The position numbers and the translations under genes were made by a program. DNA of 64,000 bases, taken from the IMG/VR virus record IMGVR_UViG_3300031237_000273, positions 2,579-66,578 of that record; one strand, given 5' to 3'. This document shows positions 49,121-64,000 of the stretch, piece by piece; positions within the stretch are counted from its first letter, which is position 1, and every line of letters starts with the position of its first letter. The stretch comes from a virus. Below the pieces are notes generated by a model. It was given only the letters and a program-made list of their open reading frames with translations. It was not told the DNA's origin and did not search any database.

Positions 49121-51136
49121 TCAGCGTCTCTTCAGATAACCGCTGGTGGAGCTGCGGCGTTGAGGTGGCGGTGCTGCCGGTCGCGATGGCACGATCGGAG
49201 CAGTAAGTTGTGGAGCCGATGGCGGTGCAGCAACGGGTGTTGCGGGTCCGGTGACACGTTCGCCTTGAACAGGCTTGATGCCCAAGGCATCGTCGAACAG
49301 TCCGGACTGCGCCAGGGACTGACGCACGCGCTCCCAGTCGTGTTCCTTGTAACGGTTGAGGCCTAGGTAGTGCGCCATGGCCAGGCAGTACACCATCAGG
49401 TCGAGCGCTTCGTTGCGCTCGGCCTTGCCCTTGACCCACTCGATGCGCTTGTGGCCGCGCACGTAGCGGGCGACTTTGCGTTCCGCGACGCACTGGTCGA
49501 AGAAGTCGTCCGGCAGGTCATTGGCGAAGTGCAGCGCACCTGGTCCGGACTCGAATGGGTAGCGGTTGTAGATCCAGTCTTTGGCCGTGTCGGTACCGAC
49601 GAACCACAGCTCGGCGCCGTTGCGTTCGGTCTGGCCCTTCCATGTCACGTCGACCATCGACGGGCGCTGAGCAATCACCGGCTTACCGGGTTTGCTCGCG
49701 CCCTTGATGGCGAACACATTCCGCCAGCGGCGAACGCGGCAGAACTGATAGACCTCATCGGTGTGGTGGCCACCGGAGTCGACGGCTACCGCGAGAATGC
49801 CAAGGCCGACGCCGCACGGGTGGCGGTATTTTGCCTTGAGCAATTCGTCCAATGCGGCCCAGGTGCGTTCGTCTGCGGGATCACCCGAGACCACCTGGTA
49901 ATCGACGACCCAACGCTCCATGCCGACGCCCCAACCCATCGCCATGAACTCCAAGCGGTTGGCCTGGACGTCGACGGAGCCGGTGATCATCAGCACCGCC
50001 GCCGGCAGTGAGCCGAGGGTGAAACCTTCCAACCGCGCCCGCTGCCTCAGCACATCGGCTTTGGTTTGCTCTTGTGCGCTGTCCCAGACTTTCGCCAGAC
50101 GGGTGTTGTAAAACACCTGCATCGGTTCCAGGTCGCCTTTGGCCTGGGCCTTCTTGGCTTTTTCGAATTGCTTGGCCAGCGACTTCCAGTCCATCCAGCC
50201 CAGCGGCGAATACAGCGCGTTGAGGTGGAAACCCACCGTCTCGCCATCGCCTTCGGCATGGGCACGCCATTCACCTTTGGCGAGCATCTCGCCCTTGTGG
50301 TACTCATCGATCAGCACGTCGCACTCGGGCCCGGCGCACTGGTAATGCACGACACTGAAGTCCTTCGAGTAATGCAGTCGCTCCCACTCAAGGATTTGCA
50401 TGTGCCCACAGTTCGGGCACGGCACGTAGTAGTAACGCTGGTCGCTGCCCTCGAACAGGTCGGAGATCCGCGAGGCGCCCTTGATCGTCGGCGAGCTGGA
50501 GAAGTAGAACTTCGCATTGCGACCGAAGGTACTGCCCCGGGTTTCCGCCAGCTCGATAGGGTCGCCCTCTTCGCCGATGTCCACTTCCCAGCGGTCGATC
50601 TCATCACCGTAAACGTAACGCGCCGACAGCTCCGAGAGGTTGGCCGCCGAACCGGCGGTGGTCACGTACAACGACCCGCCCTCGAATTCCTTGGTGTCCA
50701 TGGTGTTGCGCGAATCCCGCGAACGGCTGGACGCCACCCGTTCGCGCAGCACCGGTGTGGCCTTGATCGTCTTGCCGATCCGCGAAGACACCCGTTTGGC
50801 CAGGCCGAGGCTCGGTAGCAGAGTCAGGATATTGGACGGCGCCATGTGGATCAGACCGCCGATCCAGTTCAAGGCGATCTGCGTTTTCATCAGCTGCGAG
50901 GCGACCATGGTGATCACGCGTTTGCAGGGGTGAGCCGGCGACAGGCAGCGCATCGGCTCGCGGGCATAGGGCGTGCGGGACGTGCGGTATTGGCCGGGCT
51001 CAGCGGCACCGGTGTCACGCGGGATACGCATGTACTCGTCGGCCCACTGATCGACCCAGACATCTGGATCCGGATGCAGCCCACGAAAATACGCCTCCCG
51101 GTACACCTCAGCACCGTCAGGGATTTCCGTGGGCAT
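49121..51136 (-). CDS. Terminase large subunit (lambda gpA family)
   Basis: RTPY, SQLMKT, DEID, SSPT, CP.CG, DVQ, DSGG, RNEALD. Confidence 0.96.
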   Translation of the reverse strand: MPTEIPDGAEVYREAYFRGLHPDPDVWVDQWADEYMRIPRDTGAAEPGQYRTSRTPYAREPMRCLSPAHPCKRVITMVASQLMKTQIALNWIGGLIHMAPSNILTLLPSLGLAKRVSSRIGKTIKATPVLRERVASSRSRDSRNTMDTKEFEGGSLYVTTAGSAANLSELSARYVYGDEIDRWEVDIGEEGDPIELAETRGSTFGRNAKFYFSSSPTIKGASRISDLFEGSDQRYYYVPCPNCGHMQILEWERLHYSKDFSVVHYQCAGPECDVLIDEYHKGEMLAKGEWRAHAEGDGETVGFHLNALYSPLGWMDWKSLAKQFEKAKKAQAKGDLEPMQVFYNTRLAKVWDSAQEQTKADVLRQRARLEGFTLGSLPAAVLMITGSVDVQANRLEFMAMGWGVGMERWVVDYQVVSGDPADERTWAALDELLKAKYRHPCGVGLGILAVAVDSGGHHTDEVYQFCRVRRWRNVFAIKGASKPGKPVIAQRPSMVDVTWKGQTERNGAELWFVGTDTAKDWIYNRYPFESGPGALHFANDLPDDFFDQCVAERKVARYVRGHKRIEWVKGKAERNEALDLMVYCLAMAHYLGLNRYKEHDWERVRQSLAQSGLFDDALGIKPVQGERVTGPATPVAAPPSAPQLTAPIVPSRPAAPPPQRRSSTSGYLKRR

Positions 51137-51140
51137 GGGT

Positions 51141-51698
51141 TTAACTCGTGGTCAGGGCGTGCTCAAGATCCGCCGAGGACAAACGTTCTGCATCCTCAAG
51201 CGAGCGACGGATAGCGGCCGTCAGGTGCTTTTCGATCTGCCAAGGGTCGGTCATGACGGCAAGTTCCGGGGCCAGTTGCGGGGGCATGCCCAGCAGTTGG
51301 TCCCGCAACAGGCGGCCTGCGTTGAAGGCGCCGGTTTCCACCGCGATACGCTCAACCAAGGTGCCCTGCTGTTTGTGGAAGTTGGCTTGCTCTTGCAGGG
51401 CCAGGTAGTGCTCGCGCAGAGCCCGAGACTTTTGGAAGTCCACCGCCTGCCCGACTTGCGGCACCGCAGGTTCTTCGACGGCGGTTTCAGCCTCCTTTTG
51501 AAGGCGAAGCCGTTCGTGTCGGTTGGCGACAGCGGCTTTGCTTGGATCGGCGGACTCGGCCAGCAGGGCTTCGGTGGCTTCCAACTCCACCTTGCCATCG
51601 TCAGTCAGTACCAACCGATCCTGATTCGCCAACTTGGAAACATACGATTTCGCCCAGCCGCGCCGTGCTGCAAACTCCGTTTTGCTGATTACAGTCAT
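51141..51698 (-). CDS. Terminase small subunit
   Basis: N-terminal HTH (SKTEFAARRGWAKSYVSKL); upstream of terL. Confidence 0.9.
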   Translation of the reverse strand: MTVISKTEFAARRGWAKSYVSKLANQDRLVLTDDGKVELEATEALLAESADPSKAAVANRHERLRLQKEAETAVEEPAVPQVGQAVDFQKSRALREHYLALQEQANFHKQQGTLVERIAVETGAFNAGRLLRDQLLGMPPQLAPELAVMTDPWQIEKHLTAAIRRSLEDAERLSSADLEHALTTS

Positions 51699-51711
51699 GA
51701 TGGAATGTCCT

Positions 51712-51876
51712 GTTCACCTAATGAATACGGAGGGTTCACCTGTTCACCCCAGTTCACTAAGCTGGTGAACTGTCCGCTAACACTTTCCCGCGGGTTTCCG
51801 ACCCCGTACCCCTTGGATAACCCCAGGGTCCCCGGCGGTTTTCGGTGCCCCGGACCGGTTCATCACCCCTGTTCAC
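51712..51876. promoter_or_regulatory. Putative cos/packaging region
   Basis: GTTCAC/GTGAAC at 51712, 51734, 51742, 51752, 51765 and 51871, around a GC-rich core upstream of terS. Confidence 0.5.
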
Positions 51877-52207
51877 CGCCGGAGGGTGGCGCTTCGCACA
51901 CGCCCAGCCGCTTGGCGGCCCAGCGTTCGTACAACCCGATGGCAACATCGGCGCCGGCCATTGCGGTCAGGCAGCCCATCGCCGAAGCAGTCCAGATCGA
52001 CACCCCGGCGGCGTGCAACAACATCATGGTGGAAAGTCCGCAACCCACGCAGGCACCGGACCGAAGTGCCAGGCGCCGTAACAATGCCCAACCTCGCGCC
52101 CCGTCCTTGTCAGCTCGCCACATCTCGCCCGACACGCCGCCAACCAGGGCCAGAACGATCACTAACCAGATCGGCATCTCTGCCAGCGTTTGCTGCTCGT
52201 TTGTCAT
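51863..52207 (-). CDS. Phage holin
   Basis: Three hydrophobic segments; LVGGVSGEMWRAD. Confidence 0.85.
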   Translation of the reverse strand: MTNEQQTLAEMPIWLVIVLALVGGVSGEMWRADKDGARGWALLRRLALRSGACVGCGLSTMMLLHAAGVSIWTASAMGCLTAMAGADVAIGLYERWAAKRLGVCEAPPSGGEQG

Positions 52208-52432
52208 CGCCCTACCCCATAAACGCAAAAACCCGGCGCAATGGCCGGGTTTGGTGTGTGGTGTCTGTCGCTCTCTGCGGCCGCACCTATCGAAGATGAC
52301 TACTTTTTACAGGTGGATTTTACTGGCAGCAACCCCACTTTAATGCCACCCGGTGAATAAGTGGGCAACGCAGGGTGAACGCCTAGGCAATGTCGGTGAA
52401 TACACCACCTCGGCTATCTGTTGCTGTTGCGT

Positions 52433-52707
52433 TGTCCCATTTGTCCCACCATTCAGAATCGAAGTGGGACGCCTGAGAGCGCCTAAATTCGGGGCGTCGC
52501 CCCACTGTCCTACTTTTTTATCTTCTTTCTCGTGTAAAGAAAGAAATTGAATAACACGCGTGCGCGCCACGGGCGCGCTAGTGCCCGCTCCGCTCACATG
52601 GGCGGGAGGCTCCAACAGGCGGGACGGTGGGACACGCCAACAACGACAAGGCCCGCGCTTGTCCCACCGCGTTGAAACGCAGTAGGACAAGGCGGGCCAG
52701 CGGGACA
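52433..52707. repeat. GTCCCAC/GTGGGAC iterons around an AT-rich core (putative origin)
   Basis: About nine copies in both orientations, flanking tttttatcttctttctc...aaagaaagaaattgaat. Confidence 0.55.
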
Positions 52708-52732
52708 ACAACAGCCGAAGTCATGCCCAGGG

Positions 52733-53098
52733 TCACGCAGCCTTCCCCATCAGCATGCCTTCGATGTTCACATGAGCCTCGTGCAAACGCAGATAGTAAG
52801 TGCGAACACTACAGGCGCAGTGCAGCAGCTTCTGCCGCATGAAGCTTTCATGGTTGCAGTAGTGTTCCCTCACCACCTGTGCCAAGCGAGGCTCCAAATG
52901 CTTGTTCACGATCAGCTCAATATCCGCCGACTCATCCAGCAGCACCCGACTGCCGCGAGTCCCCCGAATCAACTCACCTTTGCACTCCATCAGCATGGCG
53001 ATCATGTTGCCGCCACTCGCCCCGCCGAAAGACTCGGCCACCGGCGAATGCAAGTCCTCAGCCCACAGCTTGAGCATCTCATCAATTCGCTTAATCAC
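52733..53098 (-). CDS. Phage late regulator (antiterminator Q-like, tentative)
   Basis: IDEMLKLWA N-terminus, C-terminal HTH-like RTYYLRLHEAH; position before the late operon. Confidence 0.65.
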   Translation of the reverse strand: MIKRIDEMLKLWAEDLHSPVAESFGGASGGNMIAMLMECKGELIRGTRGSRVLLDESADIELIVNKHLEPRLAQVVREHYCNHESFMRQKLLHCACSVRTYYLRLHEAHVNIEGMLMGKAA

Positions 53099-55310
53099 CG
53101 AAGCAAGGCTCCTCGATCGGTTCCACCTTCAACGCCGAAGCGCCACCCCAACCTGCCGGCTTCTTATAAGCCCAAGGACGCTGCCCACTTTTCGCCAATG
53201 CAGGCAAACGCACACGCCGCCAGCCGAGACGATGCATGATTGCCCCGACACGCATCTGTTCGGGCTTGCCCCAGTGGCCAGCGTCGAGTTTGAGAGGGCC
53301 AGAAAGCACTTCGCTGCCGGTGGTGGTTTCACCGATCTGCGATTCTTCCAACCAGGTCAGGATTGGCCCTTCCCACTCATCCACCACAAAGCGTTCTTCC
53401 TGCGCCTCGGCAAAGGTCGGCGCTTCATCAGGCGTCACCCACCAGATATCGCCTGCCTCATAGCAAAACATCGCTTCAGCCCAAAGCTGATCCCGGATTT
53501 CTCGCAGCTGCTCCAGGTCGACCTTGGTACAAGCCACCGGCCAATAACGCCTGTTGCCGGTGGCGTCCTTAAGGTATTCGTCTTGGTTGGTCGTCCCCAC
53601 GAACACACACTGGCGTGGCACGTCATTCGTTCGGCGGCCGTAGCTCTCGCGGTAGGTATCGGTCGACGCTGAGAAGAACTGTTTGGCCTTGGTACTCTCA
53701 GCCTTGTTGAAGCTATCCAACTCCCCCAGCTCGACAATCCATTTGCCACGGATCGCCTGAAAGCCGTCCTTGTCGCCCAGGGCAAAGGGCGTATCCATGA
53801 ACCACTCGCCGCCGAGGATGCTCATTGCCGTCGACTTACCCGCGCCCTGCGCGCCTTCCAGAATCATCACCGAGTCAGCCTTGCAGCCGGGCCTCATTAC
53901 CCGCCCCACCGCCGATAGCATCCATCGCTTACCGACCTTGGCCGAGTAGTCGCTGGCCTGCACGCCCATGACATCGGTGAGCCAACTTTCCAACCGAGGT
54001 ACCCGGTCCCATTCGAGTTTGTGCAGGTACTCCCGCACGGGATGAAATGCATGGTCATGAGCAACAACGCTCACCGCCTCAATCACCTGAGTCGACTTAA
54101 CCCGTAGGTTGTATTGCTGCGCGAGCCACTTCATCACCCGCACGTCATCGATGTCGGCCCAGTCGCCCGTACCACCGCCATAAGGGGCAGAACGTAGCTT
54201 GACGATCTTCGAACTGAAGGCGCTGTAAGTGATCACGCCGGCCCAGCGTTCGTCGTTGCCAAGTATCAGCTCAACGTTCTGCATGTGGGCAATCAGGGCG
54301 CCGCTTTCGGCGCGAGCCAATTGGTCTTTCCATCCACCCGCTGCCGGCGGCTTGACCACCGCCAACACCTGACGCCGGACCGCCTCCAAGCCTTCGGCGA
54401 CGTGCAAATCATTGAAGTCCGTCCACTTGTCTTCCCGTTCACCGGAGAAGATCGGGGCAACCACCTGGCCCCCGACGATCAAGGCGGCGTTGTTCGCCTT
54501 CTCTTCACCGGGGTTCCAAGCATCACCATTCGGGCGTTTCGTCTTCCAGTCATCATCCCGGCAGACGATCAGCGGGCAACCCGGAAAGCGTTCTCGCATC
54601 GCCTTGCACACCACCAGCAGATTGCCCGCATCGAAGGCGATGGCCACCGTCAGCGAGGTCGCCATATGCAGGCTGGCGCCCGTGGCGTAGCCCTCGCATA
54701 CAAGCACTGGTTCCCCCGGCTCAGGATGAGGCCCGATCAGGTGAAAGGCGCCCTCTTTCGACATTCCGTAAGGCCAGTAGGACTTATCCCGGCCGGTGTC
54801 TTCCTGCTTAGCTGGAAAGACCACCTGCAAGCCGACGATCTGGTCCCGCACGTTGCACATCGGCACCAAAAACGCGCCGGTGCGCGGCGCGTAACGAACA
54901 CCAAAACCGACGATCTGCTTTCGATCCAGATAGTCGCTACGGCCCTTCTCCGGCATGCGTTTGAACAGCCCCGCCGCCCGGTTCGCCGCTCGACGTGCAG
55001 CATTGGCCGCTATCTCGGCGGCGCGACGTTTGGCGTCCTCTTGGCGAGCGCGCATAACTTCACGTTCTTCAGGCGACATCCGCCCCGCCTTCACCTTAAT
55101 CTTCTGCGTTTCGCCCGAACGCCAGTCACCGAAGCTGCCAAAGATCAGCGTCTCGTCTTTTTCGGTGCGATGCTCATGGACGACATACCAACCGTTCTTT
55201 TCCTTGCCCTTGTCCTGAGTAGTCTTGCAGCGAGTCAGCTTGCCAAAAATTAGCGGCTGATCCGGCTCAAGGCCGTAGTCTGCGAATTGACCCAATACCT
55301 CATCGAGCAT
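53091..55310 (-). CDS. Toprim primase fused to VapE/VirE-type helicase
   Basis: CEGYATG, DDD Toprim, EGAQGAGKST, GTTN, TGNRRYWP; start ATG 55310. Confidence 0.93.
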   Translation of the reverse strand: MLDEVLGQFADYGLEPDQPLIFGKLTRCKTTQDKGKEKNGWYVVHEHRTEKDETLIFGSFGDWRSGETQKIKVKAGRMSPEEREVMRARQEDAKRRAAEIAANAARRAANRAAGLFKRMPEKGRSDYLDRKQIVGFGVRYAPRTGAFLVPMCNVRDQIVGLQVVFPAKQEDTGRDKSYWPYGMSKEGAFHLIGPHPEPGEPVLVCEGYATGASLHMATSLTVAIAFDAGNLLVVCKAMRERFPGCPLIVCRDDDWKTKRPNGDAWNPGEEKANNAALIVGGQVVAPIFSGEREDKWTDFNDLHVAEGLEAVRRQVLAVVKPPAAGGWKDQLARAESGALIAHMQNVELILGNDERWAGVITYSAFSSKIVKLRSAPYGGGTGDWADIDDVRVMKWLAQQYNLRVKSTQVIEAVSVVAHDHAFHPVREYLHKLEWDRVPRLESWLTDVMGVQASDYSAKVGKRWMLSAVGRVMRPGCKADSVMILEGAQGAGKSTAMSILGGEWFMDTPFALGDKDGFQAIRGKWIVELGELDSFNKAESTKAKQFFSASTDTYRESYGRRTNDVPRQCVFVGTTNQDEYLKDATGNRRYWPVACTKVDLEQLREIRDQLWAEAMFCYEAGDIWWVTPDEAPTFAEAQEERFVVDEWEGPILTWLEESQIGETTTGSEVLSGPLKLDAGHWGKPEQMRVGAIMHRLGWRRVRLPALAKSGQRPWAYKKPAGWGGASALKVEPIEEPCFGD

Positions 55311-55527
55311 GACGGGCCTCTCGCAACTCTTCGATCGATTGGCAAAGCACACACTGCGAACAACCGGGCTGCGCTAAACGACGGTCTTCAGGGATGGGAT
55401 CATCGCAACCTTCGCAGAACAGGAATGAATGCGCCGCCGAAGCAGGCTTGGCGGCGCTACGTGCAGCGAGTGCCTGATCAAGCCGCTTCTGCACCAGATC
55501 GTTGGCAAAGTCAGCGATATCAGCCAC
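55300..55527 (-). CDS. TraR/DksA C4-type zinc-finger protein
   Basis: GTG start MADIADFAND; CEGC..PIPEDRR...CVLCQ. Confidence 0.88.
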   Translation of the reverse strand: MADIADFANDLVQKRLDQALAARSAAKPASAAHSFLFCEGCDDPIPEDRRLAQPGCSQCVLCQSIEELREARHAR

Positions 55528-56038
55528 GGTCGACACCCCGCGTTGTTTGATTAACGTAGGTAGCGCGGTTGAACATCCCCAGCAGCCCTTGAATACCGCG
55601 AAACACCTGCAGGCGAATCGCAGCCAGCTCGTGGTCCGTGACCACGCCGTCGCCGATACTCTTGGCCCATGTCTCGGCCAAATCCGCAACCTGCCGAAAA
55701 TATTCAGCAATGCCGGTGGTCAAGGTTTCAGGCATGTCGTTGGTGTACGCCTCGGCTAACTCTTGCCAAGTCGTATCCCCGACCAGCGCATGCACTGCAT
55801 CCAGAATGCGACGGTCCTTGGTCAACTCCAGGATCTCGCCGAATTCCTGAATGTTCACCGTGTGGCTGGGATGGGTTGGCGACAGCTTGTGCTGCAGCGT
55901 GGTGGCGTTTCTGCCGGTGGTGGCGGCAATTGCAGCAGCGCCGCCGGGATAGTCCCGAGCAGCATGGTAAAGCGCTAAATCTAGCGGCAGGATTTCCCGC
56001 TGCGCTCGTTCTACAGAACTTAGAGCGATTCGACTCAT
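55520..56038 (-). CDS. Phage regulatory CII-family protein
   Basis: YPGGAAAIA...TLQHKLSP..HT; DGVVT..E. Confidence 0.88.
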   Translation of the reverse strand: MSRIALSSVERAQREILPLDLALYHAARDYPGGAAAIAATTGRNATTLQHKLSPTHPSHTVNIQEFGEILELTKDRRILDAVHALVGDTTWQELAEAYTNDMPETLTTGIAEYFRQVADLAETWAKSIGDGVVTDHELAAIRLQVFRGIQGLLGMFNRATYVNQTTRGVDRG

Positions 56039-56096
56039 GGCATTAATCCTTAAGGTTGCCAGTGCCGCGCGACATGCAGTGGTGATACATTTGCCG

Positions 56097-56363
56097 CGTG
56101 GCTTGAAAGGGCCCAAACGCCGGCTAGATCTTCAGGATCGTCACCGGCACCGTGCCGAGGCGAACAATCCGTTGTTCACCCCTGGCGCAACAGCTGCCCA
56201 ATCTGTGGTGGAAAAGGCAGCAACACCAAGGCATCCGTGCCTTAGAAAGCGCAGTAAAGAGAGGTGGTTAGCATGTGGTGTGCCGCCTATCCTTACCGCG
56301 ACCCGACAGCGCTGTGGTGGTGCGTGCCGGGAGGAACTGGGCGGCCTTTGGGTCGCCTTTTTT
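56097..56363 (+). ncRNA. Putative multi-hairpin trans-acting antisense RNA
   Basis: Extended -10 TGaTACATT 56083-56091; six consecutive stems (two UCCG tetraloops, three TGTGGTG loops); terminator gggcggcc-tttg-ggtcgcc-T6. Confidence 0.6.
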
Positions 56364-56372
56364 CTGACTATG

Positions 56373-56633
56373 CTATTCAACTAACTTCTTTGGTGCAGAT
56401 GCATCGAGCAGCCAAGTGGGCTCAAACGAGTGGCCCCTTTGCTTTGCGGCTGTTGCCAGAAGCACCGAGTATTGAGTTTCACCGGTGTAGTCGGTCCGCG
56501 GCAGGCTTGCAGTCTGACGCCACTTATTCAATGCCTGATAACTCCTGTCACAAACCTTCGCGGCGGCCCCGATGCCGCCTACTGCTTCAAAAGCGAACGC
56601 AATAGCGTTCGGAAAATCCGCGGGGTCCAACAT
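56373..56633 (-). CDS. cro: Cro-like protein
   Basis: AVGGIGAAAKVC.RSYQALNKW; divergent from the repressor. Confidence 0.85.
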   Translation of the reverse strand: MLDPADFPNAIAFAFEAVGGIGAAAKVCDRSYQALNKWRQTASLPRTDYTGETQYSVLLATAAKQRGHSFEPTWLLDASAPKKLVE

Positions 56634-56647
56634 GGCAACCTCCTTTT

Positions 56648-56721
56648 ATCAACCTAGAGTTGATATTAAACATCAACTGACTATTGCGCAAGCTCCATGG
56701 CACTCTCAACTCATGGTTGAT
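56648..56721. promoter_or_regulatory. Repressor operators (OR-like), TCAAC-N5-GTTGA
   Basis: atcaacctagagttgat 56648, atcaactgactattgcg 56672, ctcaactcatggttgat 56705 (overlaps the cI ATG). Confidence 0.75.
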
Positions 56722-57444
56722 AAAAACGAATTACGCGCCGCTTTTAGCGCGCGACTACATGAAGCACTCAACGATGCGGGCGTACGCGGCCGTGGACGGG
56801 GGGTGGACATCCATCGAAAATTGAAAAGTCTAGGGGTAGACAAGACTACTCAAGCGGTTAGCAAGTGGCTTAACGGCGAAGCTATGGCAGAAGCAGATAG
56901 CATGGTCGCGCTATGTTCTTGGTTAAAAGTGCGTAGGGAGTGGCTTGAGTACGGCGTTTTGCCAAAGCAACAAACCGGTGAGAGCAATGTTCATCAGCTG
57001 GTGGCCGATGAGGAAAGCAACATTAGCGAAATCAACCAACGCTTTGGCAAAGTTCCACTGATTTCTTGGGTTCAGGCAGGCGCTTGGTGCGAGGCCATTT
57101 CTAATTTTGAGTCCTATGATACTGACTCTTGGCTTTCCTGCCCTGTACCGATCAGCAATCACGGATTCGCATTGAGAGTACTTGGTGATTCGATGACAAA
57201 TCCAGGACCCGGAAGAAGCTACCCTACAGGTTGCATTATTTTTGTTGATCCTGAAGCGGAAACAAAGACAGGGGACCGAGTGATCGCCCGAGTCTCCCGT
57301 ACCAACGAGGCGACTTTCAAAATTCTAGTAGAAGATGCTGGGCGCCAATTTCTGCGACCGATAAATCCGCAGTACCCAATAATCGAAATTACTGAAGAAA
57401 CTCATATATGCGGCAAGGTGGTGGGCTCCTTCATCCCTGAATAA
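56713..57444 (+). CDS. cI: CI-like repressor (HTH + S24 peptidase)
   Basis: QAVSKWLNGE HTH, VPLISWVQAG cleavage site, GDSM, TFK. Confidence 0.95.
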   Translation: MVDKNELRAAFSARLHEALNDAGVRGRGRGVDIHRKLKSLGVDKTTQAVSKWLNGEAMAEADSMVALCSWLKVRREWLEYGVLPKQQTGESNVHQLVADEESNISEINQRFGKVPLISWVQAGAWCEAISNFESYDTDSWLSCPVPISNHGFALRVLGDSMTNPGPGRSYPTGCIIFVDPEAETKTGDRVIARVSRTNEATFKILVEDAGRQFLRPINPQYPIIEITEETHICGKVVGSFIPE

Positions 57445-57462
57445 GCCCACGCCTGCAATAAA

Positions 57463-59253
57463 TTATTCCAGAGCACCTAACAATTTAAATAAGTCTGTCG
57501 CGCGTCTTTCATGCTTCAGCACTAACTCGTTGTAAATTTTATATGCGCGAGCTAGATAGCGTGTTCCAAAAGCCGTATACGATGACGCTAGTATTTTGAA
57601 TGCGACAGAGTCCAAATCCATCTCATCAGTATTAAGAAGGTAATCCGCTTCATTAATATTCAATTTCAGGACACGCTTCAGATCCTCTTCTAATGCAGAA
57701 TATGTGTCCCCATCAGCATCCCATCCACCGCACAAATTAATAGCAAATGAAACAATCAACATTGGATGGCCATTAGTGACCTTGTCTTCGGCGTGATGAA
57801 ACGCAACACCTCCATGATCAATCCTCATCAGACCGTATCCAACCTGCAGATAATTTAATGTATCCTGATCGGATATTACACTTCCTACACCAAGCCTATC
57901 AAATGCGGCCTTAAGTTGCGGAATCAAAAATGCCCGCTCGACTAACTCTGGATTCTGCTCATACAATAGTGGAATAATATTATCCTCACTAAATGGCTTC
58001 CAGTACCTATTAATCAAGCCCACCTGAACATCATATTCTTCAGCCAATATATACTTAGAAACAAAATACTCCTGAAAGGATCTATGCGAATAGGCAACCT
58101 GTAATCCGTCTTCAATAAGCAGGCAAGTCGCTTTTAACAAATCTTCGAGATACCCTGCCCTTTTAAATGACAACCCAAGTCTTGTACGACTCACATCTAT
58201 ATATTCAAGACACTCCGGCGTCGTCATCCGAAACACTCGTTTATCAAATGTGAGCAATGAGAAAAGTGAAAAAACCCTTGAGAAGTCTAAAACATCTAAG
58301 TCGGTAGCTCTCTGGCGAGAGTAAGCTCCTTTTGATGCATCATGTTTTTGAAAAAGAGCCTCATAAGCCTGACCGTAAAATACACTCAGTTTAGTGGGCA
58401 CTTCAGCATTTTGATGATAAGTGAGGAGCATAATCGATAGTAACAGTGGATTAGATAGAAAAGACTTGTGTTCTACAAACAATCGATCCCTTAACTCTCT
58501 AATGAATTTTTCTTTGAAAATATTTTCGACGGGTAATTTAGAAACAAGATCAACTGCAGATGACTGGCTTAGTGGTTCAACATGACACTCACTAAACTGA
58601 TTCCATGCTCGGAATCGCTCGTCAGGCCTAGAAGAAATAAAGATCGGGCATCCTGGAAATTTTTGCGACAACGAATTTATATAGCTATCGACGCCCTCTC
58701 GCTTGGAAGCTAATAGTTCATCAAACCCGTCAAACAAGAAACAAAAATTACCAGACTTCAGGGCTTGTAAAAAAAAATCCCCCTCAATATCAAACCCACC
58801 ATTTTGCATTATGAATACTATATGCTCCTCAAGGGAACGAACAGAATCATTAAGATCCCTGAGCTCAACAAGTATCGGAGCGTACTCGCCGCCAGCAATA
58901 CAGCTTAGGAATATATGACGCATCAAAATCGACTTACCACAACCTCCCGTGCCGGCCACAATTATACGGCTGGACATCTCAATGCAACTAGAAAAATCGG
59001 GGCTCGATATTGAATCCGAGTAGCCAAATCTTAGTCCTATTGGAACATAGTAGTCATAAAAATCGACAGGAGTATCTGTACTCCATAAGCATTTCAGCTT
59101 TGAATACTTTACTCGCGACTTCAATATGTATCTTTGATAGCCAATCTCAATTTGACTTTTTTGCTCTCTAGTTTTATAGAGTCCTTTCGCGAAACTGAAT
59201 ACTTTCTCAATATTTGAATTAAAAATCTCTACAGCGGCTTCAACTTCATCCAT
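57463..59253 (-). CDS. NACHT-domain NTPase (bacterial NLR-like)
   Basis: GTGGCGKS, FLFDGFDE, SSRP, NPLLL, HRSFQEYF; low GC. Confidence 0.9.
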   Translation of the reverse strand: MDEVEAAVEIFNSNIEKVFSFAKGLYKTREQKSQIEIGYQRYILKSRVKYSKLKCLWSTDTPVDFYDYYVPIGLRFGYSDSISSPDFSSCIEMSSRIIVAGTGGCGKSILMRHIFLSCIAGGEYAPILVELRDLNDSVRSLEEHIVFIMQNGGFDIEGDFFLQALKSGNFCFLFDGFDELLASKREGVDSYINSLSQKFPGCPIFISSRPDERFRAWNQFSECHVEPLSQSSAVDLVSKLPVENIFKEKFIRELRDRLFVEHKSFLSNPLLLSIMLLTYHQNAEVPTKLSVFYGQAYEALFQKHDASKGAYSRQRATDLDVLDFSRVFSLFSLLTFDKRVFRMTTPECLEYIDVSRTRLGLSFKRAGYLEDLLKATCLLIEDGLQVAYSHRSFQEYFVSKYILAEEYDVQVGLINRYWKPFSEDNIIPLLYEQNPELVERAFLIPQLKAAFDRLGVGSVISDQDTLNYLQVGYGLMRIDHGGVAFHHAEDKVTNGHPMLIVSFAINLCGGWDADGDTYSALEEDLKRVLKLNINEADYLLNTDEMDLDSVAFKILASSYTAFGTRYLARAYKIYNELVLKHERRATDLFKLLGALE

Positions 59254-59363
59254 TTTTTACAGTTCTCCAGTTAAAGCGTCAATGTTGAGAATCTTCAGTT
59301 ATCCCCTGCGACTGTATCTTATGACTGGCTTACTGGAAATCGCGAACAACAGAAACGAAATTT

Positions 59364-59408
59364 ATCAACCGATAGTTGTTGACACAACATCAACCACTGG
59401 TTGATATT
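59364..59408 (+). promoter_or_regulatory. Early promoter (PL-like) with two operators
   Basis: TTGACA 59379-59384 and GATATT 59403-59408; atcaaccgatagttgtt 59364, atcaaccactggttgat 59389. Confidence 0.8.
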
Positions 59409-59443
59409 TGTCTCACTCTTCCACCACAGAGCGAGGCAACAGC

Positions 59444-59620
59444 ATGCACACCATAGCCACCCTGCACGTCCATCCGGCCGTTGCTGATCCATTCCGCATC
59501 TTCGAGATTCGCCGCTTAGCACGCGAATACGGATGCACGTTTGTCACCACCAAACCAAAGCTGAAAGCCCGCGGAACAACCGCTCCGTTCGATCCAAATG
59601 GCGGAGGGTATGCAGCATGA
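59444..59620 (+). CDS. Early hypothetical protein (58 aa)
   Basis: GAGG RBS; ATGA coupling to the next gene. Confidence 0.75.
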   Translation: MHTIATLHVHPAVADPFRIFEIRRLAREYGCTFVTTKPKLKARGTTAPFDPNGGGYAA

Positions 59621-60207
59621 GCAAGTACAAGCTGGACAACCGTTCCCTGCAACTGCTCAACGCCCAGGTCAACTTGACCGAGACCTTCAACCACACGCTA
59701 AGGTCAACACCCAAGCGTGAGGCCCTGTCGTTCCGCCTCAAAGTTGAACGCACCACATCCGACACCTTTTTCACCGTTGAACTGGGCAGCGATCGCCACA
59801 CGCTGACCCTGAAGAACGAAAAAAAGATGCACCTCAAGCTGGCTGACTTCATCGAAGAGATCGTCAACGGCCCGTTTGCCCCCAGCGACGCCGTCGACCT
59901 ATTGAACTTCCCCCTCGCCAACCTGGAATACGCTCGCTTCGATGCTGAGCACAAGCAGCAGGTATTCGAGCTGGTGCGCACTGGTGGTGTCGTGAGCCTC
60001 GACATGGGTTTTGAGCTCCCCCTCCACGTCGCATTGCATCGCACTAAAACCCGCTCTGGTGTCACTACCATCATGAGCATCGGCAAGAAAAGGCCGCGCA
60101 CCAAATGTTTCACCGTGTACGGCAGCGATGTCGAGATCTACAAGCAAGTGGCCGAGTCCATCAACCACCTTGCGGCAGCGGCAACACCCGCGGCGCACGC
60201 CGCTTGA
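59617..60207 (+). CDS. Early hypothetical protein
   Basis: MSKYKLDNRSLQLL..., translationally coupled. Confidence 0.8.
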   Translation: MSKYKLDNRSLQLLNAQVNLTETFNHTLRSTPKREALSFRLKVERTTSDTFFTVELGSDRHTLTLKNEKKMHLKLADFIEEIVNGPFAPSDAVDLLNFPLANLEYARFDAEHKQQVFELVRTGGVVSLDMGFELPLHVALHRTKTRSGVTTIMSIGKKRPRTKCFTVYGSDVEIYKQVAESINHLAAAATPAAHAA

Positions 60208-60217
60208 GGGGGACGAC

Positions 60218-60502
60218 ATGGAACGCACACTCGCCCAAGCCGCGAAACACCTCGGTCTGACTAGGCCCAAGCTGATCGACCTTATGCGGGCAAAAGGTCT
60301 GCTCAATAATCGAAACCTACCTGCCTTCCCGACCCGCGATCGCGAGTACCTGCGGGTCAAGGACAGCAACTGGTACCACGAGACCGCCGGTATGCAGTAC
60401 AGCCAGTCAACCCGCGTCAGACAACCCGGCATCCGCTGGCTGGCCGATCAACTGGGGCTCGATCTACCCACCATCCCGGTAAACCACCGTGATGTGGCCT
60501 AG
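60218..60502 (+). CDS. Antirepressor KilAC-domain protein
   Basis: TLAQAAKHLG.TRPKL..LMR.KGLL...TRVRQPGIRWLA. Confidence 0.8.
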   Translation: MERTLAQAAKHLGLTRPKLIDLMRAKGLLNNRNLPAFPTRDREYLRVKDSNWYHETAGMQYSQSTRVRQPGIRWLADQLGLDLPTIPVNHRDVA

Positions 60503-60668
60503 GGAATACGCTCGCCAGATCGTCGCCATGCGCACACGCGAGGAGCGCAATGCTGCGCTTCTCGAAGTGCCGGATCACCTACGCGAGCTGACCAAAACAC
60601 ACTGCCTGAATGCCTGGAACCACCCGGCAAGAACACAACGCAAGGAGGCTCAGCAAGCCAATGCCTAA
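60492..60668 (+). CDS. Hypothetical protein (58 aa)
   Basis: Manual translation MWPREYARQIVAMRTREERNAALLEVP...; overlaps both neighbours. Confidence 0.7.
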   Translation: MWPREYARQIVAMRTREERNAALLEVPDHLRELTKTHCLNAWNHPARTQRKEAQQANA

Positions 60669-60978
60669 CACTAGCCAGACACCACTACGACTGCGACCCG
60701 CACCCGAGTCAGTCACTATGGAACTGCTTTACCGCACCTTCGGCGACGTGCTGATCCCGTTGGAAAAAGTCCGCGAGCAGTATTTCCGCAACCTTAACGA
60801 GCAGTCTTTTGTGGCCGAGATCAACAGCGGTCGGATTCAGCTGCCCATCACCACGCTGGACACCAGTCGCAAGGCACCGAAGTACGCGCACATTCGCCAT
60901 GTTGCTTCACTGATCGACATCCGCGCCTACAAGGCAGATGAAGAGATGCTGCGACCACAGGACGATTCAACCGAGTAA
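60661..60978 (+). CDS. Pyocin activator PrtN-family protein
   Basis: LYRTFGDVLIPLEKVREQYF...GRIQLP...SRKAPKYAHI..VA..ID. Confidence 0.85.
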   Translation: MPNTSQTPLRLRPAPESVTMELLYRTFGDVLIPLEKVREQYFRNLNEQSFVAEINSGRIQLPITTLDTSRKAPKYAHIRHVASLIDIRAYKADEEMLRPQDDSTE

Positions 60979-61035
60979 GTCACCTGACCCAACGGCTGCC
61001 ACCACCAGCCTACGACGACACCAGGAGCACACCAC

Positions 61036-61215
61036 ATGACTGCAATTCAAATTTGCGCATTGATCGGCCTCATCATCGGCGCTGCCCTACTCTACTGGAC
61101 CGGCTACCGAGGTGGCCTGATCGATGGCCGCATCGAGGGAATCGACGAAGGCAAAGCCATCCAACAATCCGACAACGCCCTGCTACTGGCGGACCTAGTC
61201 AAGGAGGCAGCATGA
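61036..61215 (+). CDS. Small membrane protein (59 aa)
   Basis: AGGAG RBS; MTAIQICALIGLIIGAALLYWTGYRGG... Confidence 0.75.
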   Translation: MTAIQICALIGLIIGAALLYWTGYRGGLIDGRIEGIDEGKAIQQSDNALLLADLVKEAA

Positions 61216-61574
61216 GCCAGATTTCTCACCATCATCGCAACACGGATCAAGCTTCGCTGGCACCTGATGGACCAACTCGCTATCGAACTGCGGAGGAAAG
61301 CGGCATAAAAATGGACCAGCACACCACCCAAACATCAACCGCTTTACTCTGCAACGCCAGTGGCGTCGACACGCTAGAAACAAACAGCCTCTGCTGCGCA
61401 GCAGCAGGCATTACTACCCATCTCAGCGAAACTGAGGCACTTATACCCCACGAAAAGCTGCGCGAGGCAGCCACACCCGATGCAACGCTAATCGCTCAGA
61501 ATCGCCCGCCCGCGCAGCCTGTTGTGGGGCATATGCAGGTACAAGCTATCACCATCGCTCAGGAGGCAGCATGA
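61212..61574 (+). CDS. Hypothetical protein
   Basis: ATGA-coupled at both ends; ends QEAA. Confidence 0.6.
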   Translation: MSQISHHHRNTDQASLAPDGPTRYRTAEESGIKMDQHTTQTSTALLCNASGVDTLETNSLCCAAAGITTHLSETEALIPHEKLREAATPDATLIAQNRPPAQPVVGHMQVQAITIAQEAA

Positions 61575-61825
61575 ACAGAGAGAACTCGTTTCAGCTGCCG
61601 AGTGAAACGCTTACAGAAGATGAGTTGGCCGCTATTACAGGCTACAAGATTCCGTCCTGCCAACGTCAGTGGCTGCAACGCAATGCTTGGGAACACGTGC
61701 TCACAGCTGCACAACGCCCCGTTGTAGGTCGCGTGTACGCCCGCCTGAAGCTAGCTGGGGTGAAACCATCAGCAACCAATGCTGTAGCTGAAACCTGGTC
61801 CCTTGATCTCTCACGTGTAGGTTAA
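61571..61825 (+). CDS. DUF4224-family protein (putative excisionase)
   Basis: LTEDELAAITGY....Q.QWL...RPVVGR.Y; directly before the integrase. Confidence 0.85.
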   Translation: MNRENSFQLPSETLTEDELAAITGYKIPSCQRQWLQRNAWEHVLTAAQRPVVGRVYARLKLAGVKPSATNAVAETWSLDLSRVG

Positions 61826-61827
61826 CG

Positions 61828-62895
61828 ATGCGCCAGAAGAAAGCCGCAAACCGGGATCTGCCGCCACGGATGATCCGGCGTAGCCGCAAAAGAAAGAACG
61901 GCAGTACCTGGGTGGGCTACTACTACAACGGGCGGGACGCCGAAGGGAACCGAGTCGAAATTCCGCTCGGTGGCGACCTCGATGAAGCCAAAGTTGAATG
62001 GGCACGTCTGGATCGCAAAGCCACACCCAAGCCTGCTCACCTGATGGGCAGGTTTTTCGACGACTACGAAAGAAAGGTCATCCCTGGGCTGAAGCCCGGC
62101 ACTCAAAAGGACTACTTGAAAGGCCTCAAACAACTACGCAATTCGTTCGAAGCAGCCCCTGTAGACGCGGTCACCCCACAAGTGATCGCCCAGTATCGCG
62201 ACGCCCGAACAGCAAAGGTGCGCGCCAACCGCGAGATCGCCCTCCTCTCAACCATATTCACCTTTGCCCGCGAATGGGGGCTCACTGAAAAGGCAAACCC
62301 TTGCGCCCGCTTACGCAGGAACAAAGAAACACCCCGCGACTTCTACGCAGGCAAAATCGTTTGGGATGCGGTTTACGCAGAGGCACCGCCCGAGCTGAAA
62401 GACGCAATGGACCTAGCCTACCTGACTGGCCAGCGCCCCGCAGATGTGCTCAAAGCATCAACTGCCGACTTGTATAACGGGTTCCTGATGGTAGGCCAGG
62501 GCAAGACTGAAAAACGCTTGCGCATCCGTCTACACGACGGCGCAGGCGCATCAGGGCTCAGCACCTTCCTCGATGCCCTACTCGAGCGCAAAGCTATGGC
62601 CGGCATCAGAAGTTCAAGCCTGATCACCAACCAGGCGGGTCTGCGAATGAGTTACGCAATGCTGAGAAATCGGTGGGATGAAGCCCGAGAAAAAGCAGCC
62701 GCGAAGGCCGCGACTGAAGGTGATGCAACGCTTGCCGCCGCGATCCGCCAGTTCCAATTCCGCGACATCCGACCAAAAGCCGCCAGCGAAATTGAAGACA
62801 TTAGTCATGCTAGCCGCCTGCTTGGCCACTCAACGCAGGAGATGACGAAAAAGGTTTATCGAAGAATAGGAGAGATAGTGAAGCCAACAAAATAA
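61828..62895 (+). CDS. int: Phage tyrosine integrase
   Basis: ANREIA, LTGQR..D, FRDIR.K, LLGH, VYRR. Confidence 0.95.
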   Translation: MRQKKAANRDLPPRMIRRSRKRKNGSTWVGYYYNGRDAEGNRVEIPLGGDLDEAKVEWARLDRKATPKPAHLMGRFFDDYERKVIPGLKPGTQKDYLKGLKQLRNSFEAAPVDAVTPQVIAQYRDARTAKVRANREIALLSTIFTFAREWGLTEKANPCARLRRNKETPRDFYAGKIVWDAVYAEAPPELKDAMDLAYLTGQRPADVLKASTADLYNGFLMVGQGKTEKRLRIRLHDGAGASGLSTFLDALLERKAMAGIRSSSLITNQAGLRMSYAMLRNRWDEAREKAAAKAATEGDATLAAAIRQFQFRDIRPKAASEIEDISHASRLLGHSTQEMTKKVYRRIGEIVKPTK

Positions 62896-62950
62896 GGTTA
62901 CTAGATAAGTCTCTGGCTTGTTATTTTATCATGACTTGCCAGCCATACCC

Positions 62951-64000
62951 TCAGTTTATCCAAATGGACAAGTCCGCAAATTCCTCAACGACAATACGTT
63001 TGATATTTGCATGTGCAATTGCAATCCCGACACTTGTCAGATTAAAGTTCTTTGCTAGTGAATCATCCCATACGGAAAAAACCTCAGCCATATAAGGACG
63101 AAGAGAAACGCACTTAGCTCTTACCTCCTCTTTACTCATTCTATTTAGTTTATACAGCTTATCTAGTTTCTCTCTATCCTCCGGTAAGACATCGTTTTTT
63201 CCGAGTAAATCTGCCATTGTTGCATCATTCAAAGCCCTCACTTGGAATTTATTTTTATCATTTAAACATGCGAGCAAGAAACGGGTTCTGAGCACAATAC
63301 TCAACCCCACTTCTTCAACGGTACTCATATCGAATCCCTTCGAAAAGAATCCGGGATAGTGCGCTCCGAGAATCTCCCCCAAAGACGCGTCCATAAAGTT
63401 TTGACTGCCACATCCGGTGAATTCGAGGTGTTGAAAGCTAGCTTGATTTTTAACCAAATCGCCGACCAAAGGCTGGATATGTTGATCAAAATACTCACCA
63501 AACATTTCATCGTTCACTACAGCATTATTTTGCGTGTAGCGGAATATAAAAATAAGAGACAGAGTGGCCAGCTGACCTATTGTTAGCTTAGGTGCAACCT
63601 CTAACGACTCATTTAAAACAATCTGTAAGATATTACGCTGAGACTGTTTGCTCCGATCTACCAACAAGTCAACCAGCAAATCACCTAAATCCTTGTCTCC
63701 AGTTCGGCCATATTGCTTTTGTACAGTTAATAATGCGTACTGAAAATCTGGATCTACAGCCTTTGCCAGGCCTTCCGGATAATCCCTCTCAAGCTTAGAA
63801 ATCACACTATCTGTAATTTCTTCGACGCGTGCACTCATGGTCTCCTTGGCGAGCCCTGTGAGTTCATAGAAAGTTACTTTAGCGACGTCCAAAGCAATCG
63901 CGCGCGCATCCGCTGCCGAGATACCAATAATGACATCTCGTGCAGCCTGAATCGCCAAGGCACCCGCACCCACATCTTGATTTTGATCCTTATTAAGCAT
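62951..64000 (-). CDS. LPO_1073/Vpar_1526-like protein (moron)
   Basis: Q.VG.GA.AIQA N-terminus, DPDFQYAL, LTSVGIAIAHAN C-terminus; low GC; ATG at the window edge. Confidence 0.75.
   Translation of the reverse strand: MLNKDQNQDVGAGALAIQAARDVIIGISAADARAIALDVAKVTFYELTGLAKETMSARVEEITDSVISKLERDYPEGLAKAVDPDFQYALLTVQKQYGRTGDKDLGDLLVDLLVDRSKQSQRNILQIVLNESLEVAPKLTIGQLATLSLIFIFRYTQNNAVVNDEMFGEYFDQHIQPLVGDLVKNQASFQHLEFTGCGSQNFMDASLGEILGAHYPGFFSKGFDMSTVEEVGLSIVLRTRFLLACLNDKNKFQVRALNDATMADLLGKNDVLPEDREKLDKLYKLNRMSKEEVRAKCVSLRPYMAEVFSVWDDSLAKNFNLTSVGIAIAHANIKRIVVEEFADLSIWIN

Follow-up and report, generated by a model that had tools for sequence, protein, structure and literature searches.

What is encoded in the long gap between the cro and cII genes of a lambdoid Pseudomonas phage, and does it act beyond the two genes that flank it? 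We addressed this question in a viral stretch of 64,000 nucleotides (positions 2,579 to 66,578 of the IMG/VR virus record IMGVR_UViG_3300031237_000273, which is 66.6 kb long). This whole stretch, which we call the window, has a lambdoid gene order and a cro-cII gap of 334 nt. A sequence-only reading of the window, made by a model from the letters and open reading frames (ORFs), had proposed that the + strand of this gap specifies a train of hairpins whose loops pair in trans with early messages 3-5 kb away. Co-variation among relatives and the architecture of distant phages both support the core of that proposal. We consider it likely that the gap holds the gene of a small RNA (sRNA) of about 265 nt, predicted to pair in trans with the loop of the 5′ hairpin of a PL-like transcript and with start codons in the same operon. 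Because its gene lies between cro and cII, this RNA would be complementary over its whole length to the cII leader, with its end 60 nt short of the cII AUG.

The predicted gene opens with an extended −10-like element and closes with an intrinsic terminator; the coordinates of these and all other features are collected in Table 1. In an alignment of 238 rows, which include up to 25 truncated duplicates, T56083 and G56084 never vary, TACATT (56086-91) is intact in at least 236 rows, and the position between them, 56085, is free (A210, T13, G13, C2). With TG and TACATT fixed and all four bases found between them, this is the pattern of an extended −10 element. The T run of the terminator is unvarying in 93 sequences. 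The sequence-only reading had located both signals correctly, as it had the three + strand loops that carry TGTGGTG (56204-56210, 56274-56280, and 56313-56319). It counted six tandem stems; the hairpin train itself stands, but the number does not, and we count about seven hairpins in addition to the terminator.

Three of these hairpins (D, B, and A) present candidate guides. The guide of hairpin D (UCUGUGGUGGAA) is the exact reverse complement of 59419-59430, and that of hairpin B (CAUGUGGUGUGC) is the exact reverse complement of 61027-61038, so that both 12-nt matches claimed for this RNA are real. The guide of hairpin A (CUGUGGUGG) complements 59421-59429 and also the CCACCAC loop (60999-61005) of a second hairpin, called hairpin 2 here; this double fit had been noticed from the sequence as well, and hairpin 2 folds as described. 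When up to one mismatch was allowed, TTCCACCACAGA occurred in the window only at 56202-56213 (− strand) and 59419-59430 (+ strand), where 0.26 matches are expected from shuffles and 2 of 100 shuffles reach two. Likewise, GCACACCACATG occurred only at 56272-56283 (− strand) and 61027-61038 (+ strand), with 0.34 expected and 5 of 100 shuffles reaching two. For CCACCACA there were nine occurrences against 2.03 expected, a number that none of 100 shuffles reached. From the RNA gene it is 3.05 kb to the first site (59419) and 4.7 kb to the second (61027), and cI and a NACHT gene lie between. In the target, a CCACCAC-type site lies 5′ of a GCACACCAC-type site, as expected if loops A (3′) and B (5′) of a single RNA bound there in antiparallel orientation, much as c4 RNA pairs at two sites. 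The Shine-Dalgarno sequence of the first ORF is inside the 3′ arm of the 5′ hairpin, and the stem of hairpin 2 occurs in the variants GGCCG/CGGCC, GACUG/CAGUC, and GGCUG/CGGCC. For host targets, a search of five Pseudomonas genomes with the two 12-mers returned the prophage pair and 0-3 other matches per genome, a number similar to the 0-2 of a reversed-pattern control. We also calculated RNAduplex energies for the whole RNA against 60-nt segments of the window, but these were meaningless, with giant interior loops, and were dropped.

The test that the sequence-only reading had proposed, whether loops and targets co-vary in relatives, gave a positive result. We counted 213 distinct loci, those left once truncated duplicates had been removed. 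For loop B and the ribosome-binding site of the membrane-peptide gene (n = 177), CAUGUGGUGUGC was found with GCACACCACAUG in 149 loci, all Watson-Crick, while the variant CAUUUGGUUUGC was found with GCAAACCAAAUG in 12, a case of two transversions that are both compensated; one further variant locus has an extra mismatch. Mixed pairs were absent (0 of 177), and in the other 15 loci a canonical loop B stands opposite a target with one or few changes, five of which are G·U only. The start of ORF1 tracks loop B as well: of 13 variant loci, 9 have GCAAACC, a sequence missing from all 179 canonical loci, 142 of which have GCACACC. Loop D behaves similarly. Of 16 loci with its variant CUCUGUGGUAAGAA (GGUAAG), 9 have UUACCACAG (UUACC) in the loop of the hairpin that opens the PL transcript and none has CCACCACAG (CCACC), and the 176 loci with a canonical loop D have CCACCACAG at the PL 5′ hairpin in 151 cases and UUACCACAG in none. 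For hairpin A, 13 loci have the loop variant GUGGUGA, and hairpin 2 reads UCACCAC in 12 of them; the canonical GUGGUGG goes with CCACCAC in 143 of 160 and with UCACCAC, a G·U state, in four. Finally, among loci with at least 7 kb of sequence downstream, both site types lie on the PL-sense strand in 141 of 154; on the opposite strand, taken as a control, the counts were 8 for loop B and 19 for loops D or A.

These relatives were collected by tblastn with the cII protein as query, which confirmed 480 and 509 stretches in IMG/VR and, in contigs representing one genome per species, 108 stretches, of which 80 loci were listed. All 80 listed genome loci are from Pseudomonas (fluorescens and syringae groups). 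The element, with 80-97% identity, was located upstream of cII and at full length in 72 of 80 viral loci drawn from the 480-stretch set, the other eight having too little sequence upstream of cII, and beside cII in every one of the 80 genome loci (at full length in 79). Pseudomonas prophages supply more than 200 distinct loci in which it adjoins a CP76-type cII gene. Columns 1-7 of the alignment vary, all later ones are conserved, and the likeness among relatives ends at the T run of the terminator. Thus, the RNA module moves with cII and not with cro and cI.

The alignments also speak for a conserved fold. RNAalifold predicted seven local hairpins from 70 distinct sequences, with 21 of 102 pairs varying on both sides. 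On the + strand of 56191-56368, in 93 diverse sequences, 97.3% of cells hold standard pairs, and 20 of 46 pairs show double-sided change, compared with 7.8 ± 1.4 in shuffled data (0 of 500 shuffles reach 20) and 4-8 in slid controls. Single pairs illustrate the pattern: one pair in hairpin HE is AU in 34, GC in 27, and GU in 8 of the 70 sequences, and one pair of the terminator stem reads GU 52, AU 38, GC 3 on the + strand, the GU state of which is an A·C mismatch on the − strand. Of 209 rows of the 5′ hairpin, 179 have TG at 56103/56110; at 56104/56109, 164 rows have TG and 36 have TA. An early reading of wobble pairs in the 70 sequences had favored the − strand and was dropped after the 209-sequence and + strand counts. 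We conclude that both strands are probably structured RNAs. A covariance model (R1) built from the 93 sequences, all from prophages of the P. fluorescens/syringae group, scores the window at 201.2 bits.

The same arrangement extends to phages that share little sequence with the window. Although none of 50,697 phage records matched 56030-56640 by blastn, six records at 34-45% identity came up when CII was the tblastn query. Two of these, the P. aeruginosa phages Haddon and vB_Pae_U5 (U5), share the gene order of the window, and about 355 nt separate their cro and cII genes. Read against cII, this gap contains the hairpin loops CUCUGUGGUGGAGAG, CUCUGUGGUGGAAA, and CCGGUGGUGGCG together with the same AAGGCAUCCGUGCCUU hairpin, and hairpin C is present in both phages. 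There, CUCUGUGGUGGAGAG forms a 15-nt pair with CUCUCCACCACAGAG, part of a 5′ hairpin ahead of the first gene that follows cI; UUGCAUGGUGGU complements two start codons (10 and 11 nt), those of this first gene and of a gene past the PrtN-like gene; and the third loop can pair with a GGCCG-CCACCAC-CGGCC hairpin. Model R1 scores 49.9 bits in Haddon (E 3.4e-13) and 47.2 bits in vB_Pae_U5 (E 2.1e-12). The Halomonas phage vB_HmeY_H4907 follows the same plan in other letters: CCGUGGUGGGGUA fits the PL 5′ hairpin at its loop over 13 nt, GCAUUGGUUUGCA fits both the region of the first start codon (13 nt) and a site ahead of a third gene (14 nt), and an intrinsic terminator in the sRNA sense adjoins cro. 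By eye, −10-like hexamers lie at the same relative place, TAGAGT in Haddon and TATATT in the Halomonas phage.

RNA libraries offer a weak hint of + strand expression. RNA runs were found with 55900-56700, of whose words they contain small shares, and the contigs (not reads) of four libraries were aligned at 85% likeness; the runs were therefore chosen by this very stretch. Three libraries from three studies (X3, X9, and X10) have many short contigs on about 56109-56366, and a fourth (X19) has one low-depth contig. In X10, sequences that we take to be Illumina adapters are joined at 56112 (read-1, − strand side) and at 56233 and 56341 (read-2). In most stranded kits, this orientation corresponds to + strand RNA. 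Neither X9 nor X10 had a contig on the body of cII or on cro at 85% likeness, and the PL operon was thinly covered; since contigs and diverged relatives are unable to demonstrate absence, we draw no conclusion from either. Separately, X9 includes a 1627-nt contig that runs from 56283-56366 past the terminator into diverged flank, so some molecules, or DNA, cross it; if the contig is RNA, some transcripts read on toward cro and cI, which bears on a PRE-like role.

Several observations weigh against pairing in trans by a + strand RNA. In a tree of 238 rows computed with the loops masked, each variant class is monophyletic (17 and 17 tips), so that the close family gives two independent events and not dozens. 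The co-variation has gaps: PL sites are imperfect in 7 of the 16 loop D variant loci, one variant loop B locus retains the canonical ORF1 start GCACACC, and 13 of the 154 long loci lack one site type at the thresholds used. The whole RNA folds only modestly better than its shuffles (z −2.3), and wobble pairs, counted on 209 sequences, leave the strand unsettled, with HE and one hairpin A pair favoring the − strand and the 5′ hairpin and terminator favoring the + strand. Contigs of RNA libraries cannot give the strand, ends, or level of a transcript, and such libraries may contain DNA. Among the distant phages, the P. aeruginosa forms (Haddon and U5) are without a canonical terminator; model R1 has no match in H4907 at E ≤ 1, and the kinship of this phage to the RNA family would be one of architecture alone. 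In Ralstonia phage Dina, complementarity does not exceed the opposite-strand control, and the model score of 8 bits is noise.

The data establish the complementarity with its conservation and co-variation, guides being placed in loops and targets in the loop of a 5′ hairpin, that of a second hairpin, and three start regions. If the RNA works as we propose, the G/U-rich guide loops D, B, and A would pair in trans with two site pairs of the PL-like operon. The first pair would consist of the 5′-terminal hairpin loop and the first codons of ORF1, and the second of the hairpin 2 loop and the spacer and AUG of the membrane-peptide gene. Loop-loop contacts would form first, and ribosome entry would then be blocked at the starts of ORF1 and the membrane peptide; pairing may also expose the message to decay or termination. 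The operon (ORF1, ANT-domain gene, PrtN-like gene, membrane peptide, xis-like gene, and int) would thereby be silent in lysogens, and in cis the RNA would hold down cII in the manner of lambda OOP.

The reading that competes best, one that the sequence-only reading did not raise, assigns function to the other strand. In it, the − strand early transcript matters, and its CACCAC-loop hairpins and the PL motifs are same-sense sites of nutL/nutR type that bind one phage or host factor, for example an antiterminator, so that a + strand RNA is not required. The positions do equal those of lambda nutR (cro-cII) and nutL (PL leader), the order of motifs (CCACCAC type, then GCACACCAC type) is common to both transcripts, the − strand leader folds well (z −4.15), and some stems with wobble pairs are workable on the − strand only. 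Moreover, nutL and nutR co-vary between phages, and co-variation alone is therefore no proof of pairing. The details fit poorly, however. Unlike nut/boxB sites, the copies share the letters of the loops alone, each having a stem of its own, and the GCACACCAC-type targets lack structure and fall on start codons in all three lineages despite their differing letters. Identity crosses the borders between loop and stem and extends up to 15-18 nt. One clade changed B-type sites only and another changed D/A-type sites only, so that two co-evolving binders would be needed. Relatives conserve both the + strand promoter pattern and its terminator, and Halomonas has a terminator as well. As weak evidence, the first PL gene falls in no N-like family in Pfam, PHROGs, or NCBIfam. 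We regard nut-like sites as an unlikely explanation.

We also doubt strongly that the + transcript is mainly an attenuated leader of PRE/pE type directed toward cI, or an OOP-like cis brake on cII, with the trans matches secondary. The promoter adjoins the start of cII, like lambda PRE and phage 186 pE, the RNA is complementary to the cII leader over its full length, and the long X9 contig passes the terminator. Nevertheless, a strong conserved terminator stands ahead of cro and cI, and a role confined to cis explains neither why distant targets change in step with the loops nor why both site types occur on the PL-sense strand in so many loci. That the matches are chance, or a dispersed repeat of repetitive extragenic palindromic (REP) type without regulatory link, is hardly credible, for although CACCACA occurs 18 times in the window against 7.8 expected, and although the 9-nt match at 61319 listed by the sequence-only reading, while present, is not a conserved site (within 400 nt in 6 of 178 loci) and is probably itself chance, the 12-mers are unique in the window, conserved in position, and co-varying, and five host genomes have no excess of the words outside prophages.

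A trans-acting guide RNA of this kind could have a wider role. It is possible, but less than probable in our view, that the RNA constitutes a second, sequence-programmable immunity determinant in lambdoid phages of a widespread group, which would shut the left operon in trans by multi-loop kissing and brake cII in cis, and whose alleles would define heteroimmunity classes. Such classes would decide which related phages co-reside or superinfect. Loop/target alleles number at least three in the P. fluorescens/syringae group, with one in P. aeruginosa and one in Halomonas. Of ten Pseudomonas genomes with two or three copies of the element, seven carry differing loop classes (contigs L223/L267, L224/L247, L228/L251/L256, L234/L257, L245/L262, L254/L264, and L261/L265). 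Chance would give an estimated 4 or so in 10, and the excess is suggestive, no more, of RNA-based heteroimmunity. The element is present in about 500 viral contigs with tblastn-confirmed cII-like genes, in prophages of dozens of Pseudomonas species, in cultured P. aeruginosa phages, and, by architecture, in a Halomonas phage. It may help account for the specificity of immunity and for polylysogeny in both plant-associated and clinical Pseudomonas, and its natural allele swaps offer a testable case of trans-acting multi-loop antisense control in phage.

How does this RNA compare with those already known? The textbook lambdoid switch consists of the proteins CI, Cro, and CII, with OOP as a minor RNA, and our finding adds a conserved, co-evolving guide RNA that would tie two early operons together and points to control of the lysis-lysogeny switch at the RNA level as well. 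An Rfam search, which the sequence-only reading had suggested, returned no match to C4 at E ≤ 1 (50000-64000) or E ≤ 10 (56040-56400) and none to another family; the top match, SorX, reaches 16.8 bits against a gathering score of 46.6 and covers the terminator only. In the Haddon and Halomonas loci, Rfam gave nothing at the gathering score. Thus, the RNA would work like c4 or CI RNA without being a member of the family. The CI RNA of P4 is an immunity factor that pairs with repeated sites in the early transcript, is processed from the transcript that it shuts off, and causes premature termination. Our RNA resembles it in having guide loops for early-operon sites but is encoded in trans, has sites on start codons, and belongs to a phage with a CI/S24 protein repressor. 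In P1 and P7, c4 RNA, from the immI region, has a′/b′ and a2/b2 sites, and heteroimmunity between the two phages arises from changed loop/target alleles.

According to PMC12197685, P1/P7 c4 is a small RNA in which short loop stretches pair near the ribosome-binding site of a short upstream ORF that shares its operon with an antirepressor gene. The RNA described here is like it in placing guides in hairpin loops and sites at the ribosome-binding site of an early ORF. At 77 nt, c4 is excised from the leader of the very operon under its control; the RNA described here would measure about 265 nt, with three guide loops, its own promoter-like element, and a terminator, and its gene lies past cI, in the cro-cII gap, where it is read against the cII leader. 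Lambda OOP is listed as a cis-acting RNA of 77 nt (PMC12197685). The cro-cII gap has the sequence features expected of a short terminated RNA opposite the cII message. OOP covers the 3′ end of cII and is not known to have trans targets in PL, whereas the predicted RNA would overlap the 5′ leader and offer guide loops for another operon. P22 sar, according to PMC12197685, is an antisense RNA that lowers antirepressor synthesis by pairing at the initiation region. It is encoded in cis in the ant region and is 68-69 nt long, unlike our RNA, whose complementarity is short, confined to loops, and at a distance. Full-text literature searches outside subscription journals and supplements found no description of this RNA, and the phage sRNA table of PMC12197685 has no such Pseudomonas RNA in the part shown. 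What would be new is an RNA that is trans-encoded, multi-loop, and linked to cII, with action both in cis and in trans.

The gene names given to this region from sequence alone hold: Pfam supports CII, the S24 repressor, ANT, PrtN, DUF4224, and integrase, and cro stands by its position with weak support from PHROG. The leader of the cII-like gene overlaps the RNA gene. On the + strand, the PL-like operon comprises, in order, a 58-aa ORF (ORF1), a 196-aa ORF (ORF2), an ANT KilAC ORF (1.7e-8), a 59-aa ORF, a PrtN-like ORF (1.8e-28), the 59-aa membrane peptide, a 120-aa ORF, a DUF4224 xis-like ORF, and the integrase gene. For ORF1, ORF2, the membrane peptide, and the 120-aa ORF, searches of Pfam, PHROGs, and NCBIfam gave no family with a name, and in the Atlas they are only “hypothetical”.

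Table 1. Features of the cro-cII gap, the predicted small RNA, its putative targets, and neighboring genes in the window.
Feature	Coordinates	Strand	Basis or remarks
Extended −10-like element TGaTACATT	56083..56091	+	predicted start near G56098
Predicted small RNA, about 265 nt	56098..56365	+	promoter-like element to terminator; antisense to cro-cII leader
5′ hairpin GGCUU-GAAA-GGGCC	56100..56113	+	two U·G pairs possible on + strand only
Guide-less hairpins HF (56119-56148) and HE (56152-56188)	56119..56190	+	compensatory changes
Hairpin D	56193..56221	+	loop guide UCUGUGGUGGAA at 56202-56213
Hairpin C, AAGGCA-UCCG-UGCCUU	56228..56243	+	closing pair AU 44 / UA 41 (93 sequences)
Hairpin B	56250..56300	+	loop guide CAUGUGGUGUGC at 56272-56283
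Hairpin A	56302..56331	+	loop guide CUGUGGUGG at 56312-56320
Intrinsic terminator, convergent with cro	56339..56365	+	terminator scan; stem 56339-56358, then T run
PL-like promoter TTGACA, 18 nt, GATATT	59379..59408	+	10/12 consensus positions; top promoter-like site in 55400-62000
Hairpin at 5′ end of PL-like transcript	59410..59437	+	folds; stem variants compensatory in relatives
Target site 1a, UUCCACCACAGA	59419-59430	+	loop and 3′ arm of 5′ hairpin
ORF1 of PL-like operon, 58 aa	59444..59620	+	phrog_35204
Target site 1b, GCACACCA in the window	59447-59454	+	mostly AUGCACACCACAGC in relatives; directly past ORF1 AUG
Hairpin 2 GGCUG-CCACCAC-CAGCC, target site 2a	60994..61010	+	folds; 3′ of PrtN-like gene
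Target site 2b, GCACACCACAUG	61027-61038	+	from just past the Shine-Dalgarno sequence through AUG
Membrane-peptide gene, 59 aa	61036-61215	+	phrog_28176
cII-like activator gene	55520..56038	−	Pfam Phage_CP76 E 7.4e-22; PHROG CII-like 6.9e-29
DksA/TraR-like zinc-finger ORF, then Toprim/VapE-like primase-helicase gene	after cII	−	
cro-like gene	56373..56633	−	position and weak PHROG repressor match (1e-4)
S24 CI-like repressor gene	probable start 56713, end 57444	+	
NACHT gene, 596 aa	57463-59253	−	NACHT E 7.8e-13; C-terminal SNaCT13 E 1.8e-15

A palindrome, ATCAACCACTGGTTGAT (59389-59405), overlaps the PL-like promoter, and GTTGATATTAAACATCAAC lies at the PR-like promoter (56659-56677); both are likely CI operators. 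No site of either type is near the sRNA promoter, and the RNA is therefore probably outside CI control. The NACHT gene is placed between the repressor gene and the PL-like promoter, and its domains make the protein look like an anti-phage moron of the nucleotide-binding leucine-rich repeat (NLR) type. Relatives differ in the spacing between the RNA and the PL site, which is about 1.4 to 5.1 kb; thus, the slot of the NACHT gene is variable among them.

ORF1 is the gene most tightly wrapped by the RNA target sites. In a comparison by eye, its product is conserved, reading MHTIATLHVHPA... in the window, MQRSATVHVHPA... in Haddon (L300 1637-1828), and ...RVYMHPAAG... in the Halomonas phage (L302 5654-5463).

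The cII leader has a further hairpin, H-G, with the loop UCACCAC (56062-56101, − strand sense), which encloses the complement of the sRNA −10 element. It shows compensatory changes, one pair being GC in 64 and AU in 6 sequences and another GU in 58, AU in 8, and GC in 4. H-G is upstream of the predicted sRNA start and is thus part of the − strand message only; perhaps it has a role in cII translation. Lastly, a 46-aa “hypothetical protein” annotated in Haddon (Haddon_CDS0011; PQ571161.1 5215-5355, L300 216-356) is on the cII strand, directly over the hairpin train of the cro-cII gap. This coding sequence is probably a mis-call over the RNA element, and the element thereby flags a likely mis-annotated small coding sequence in published phage genomes.

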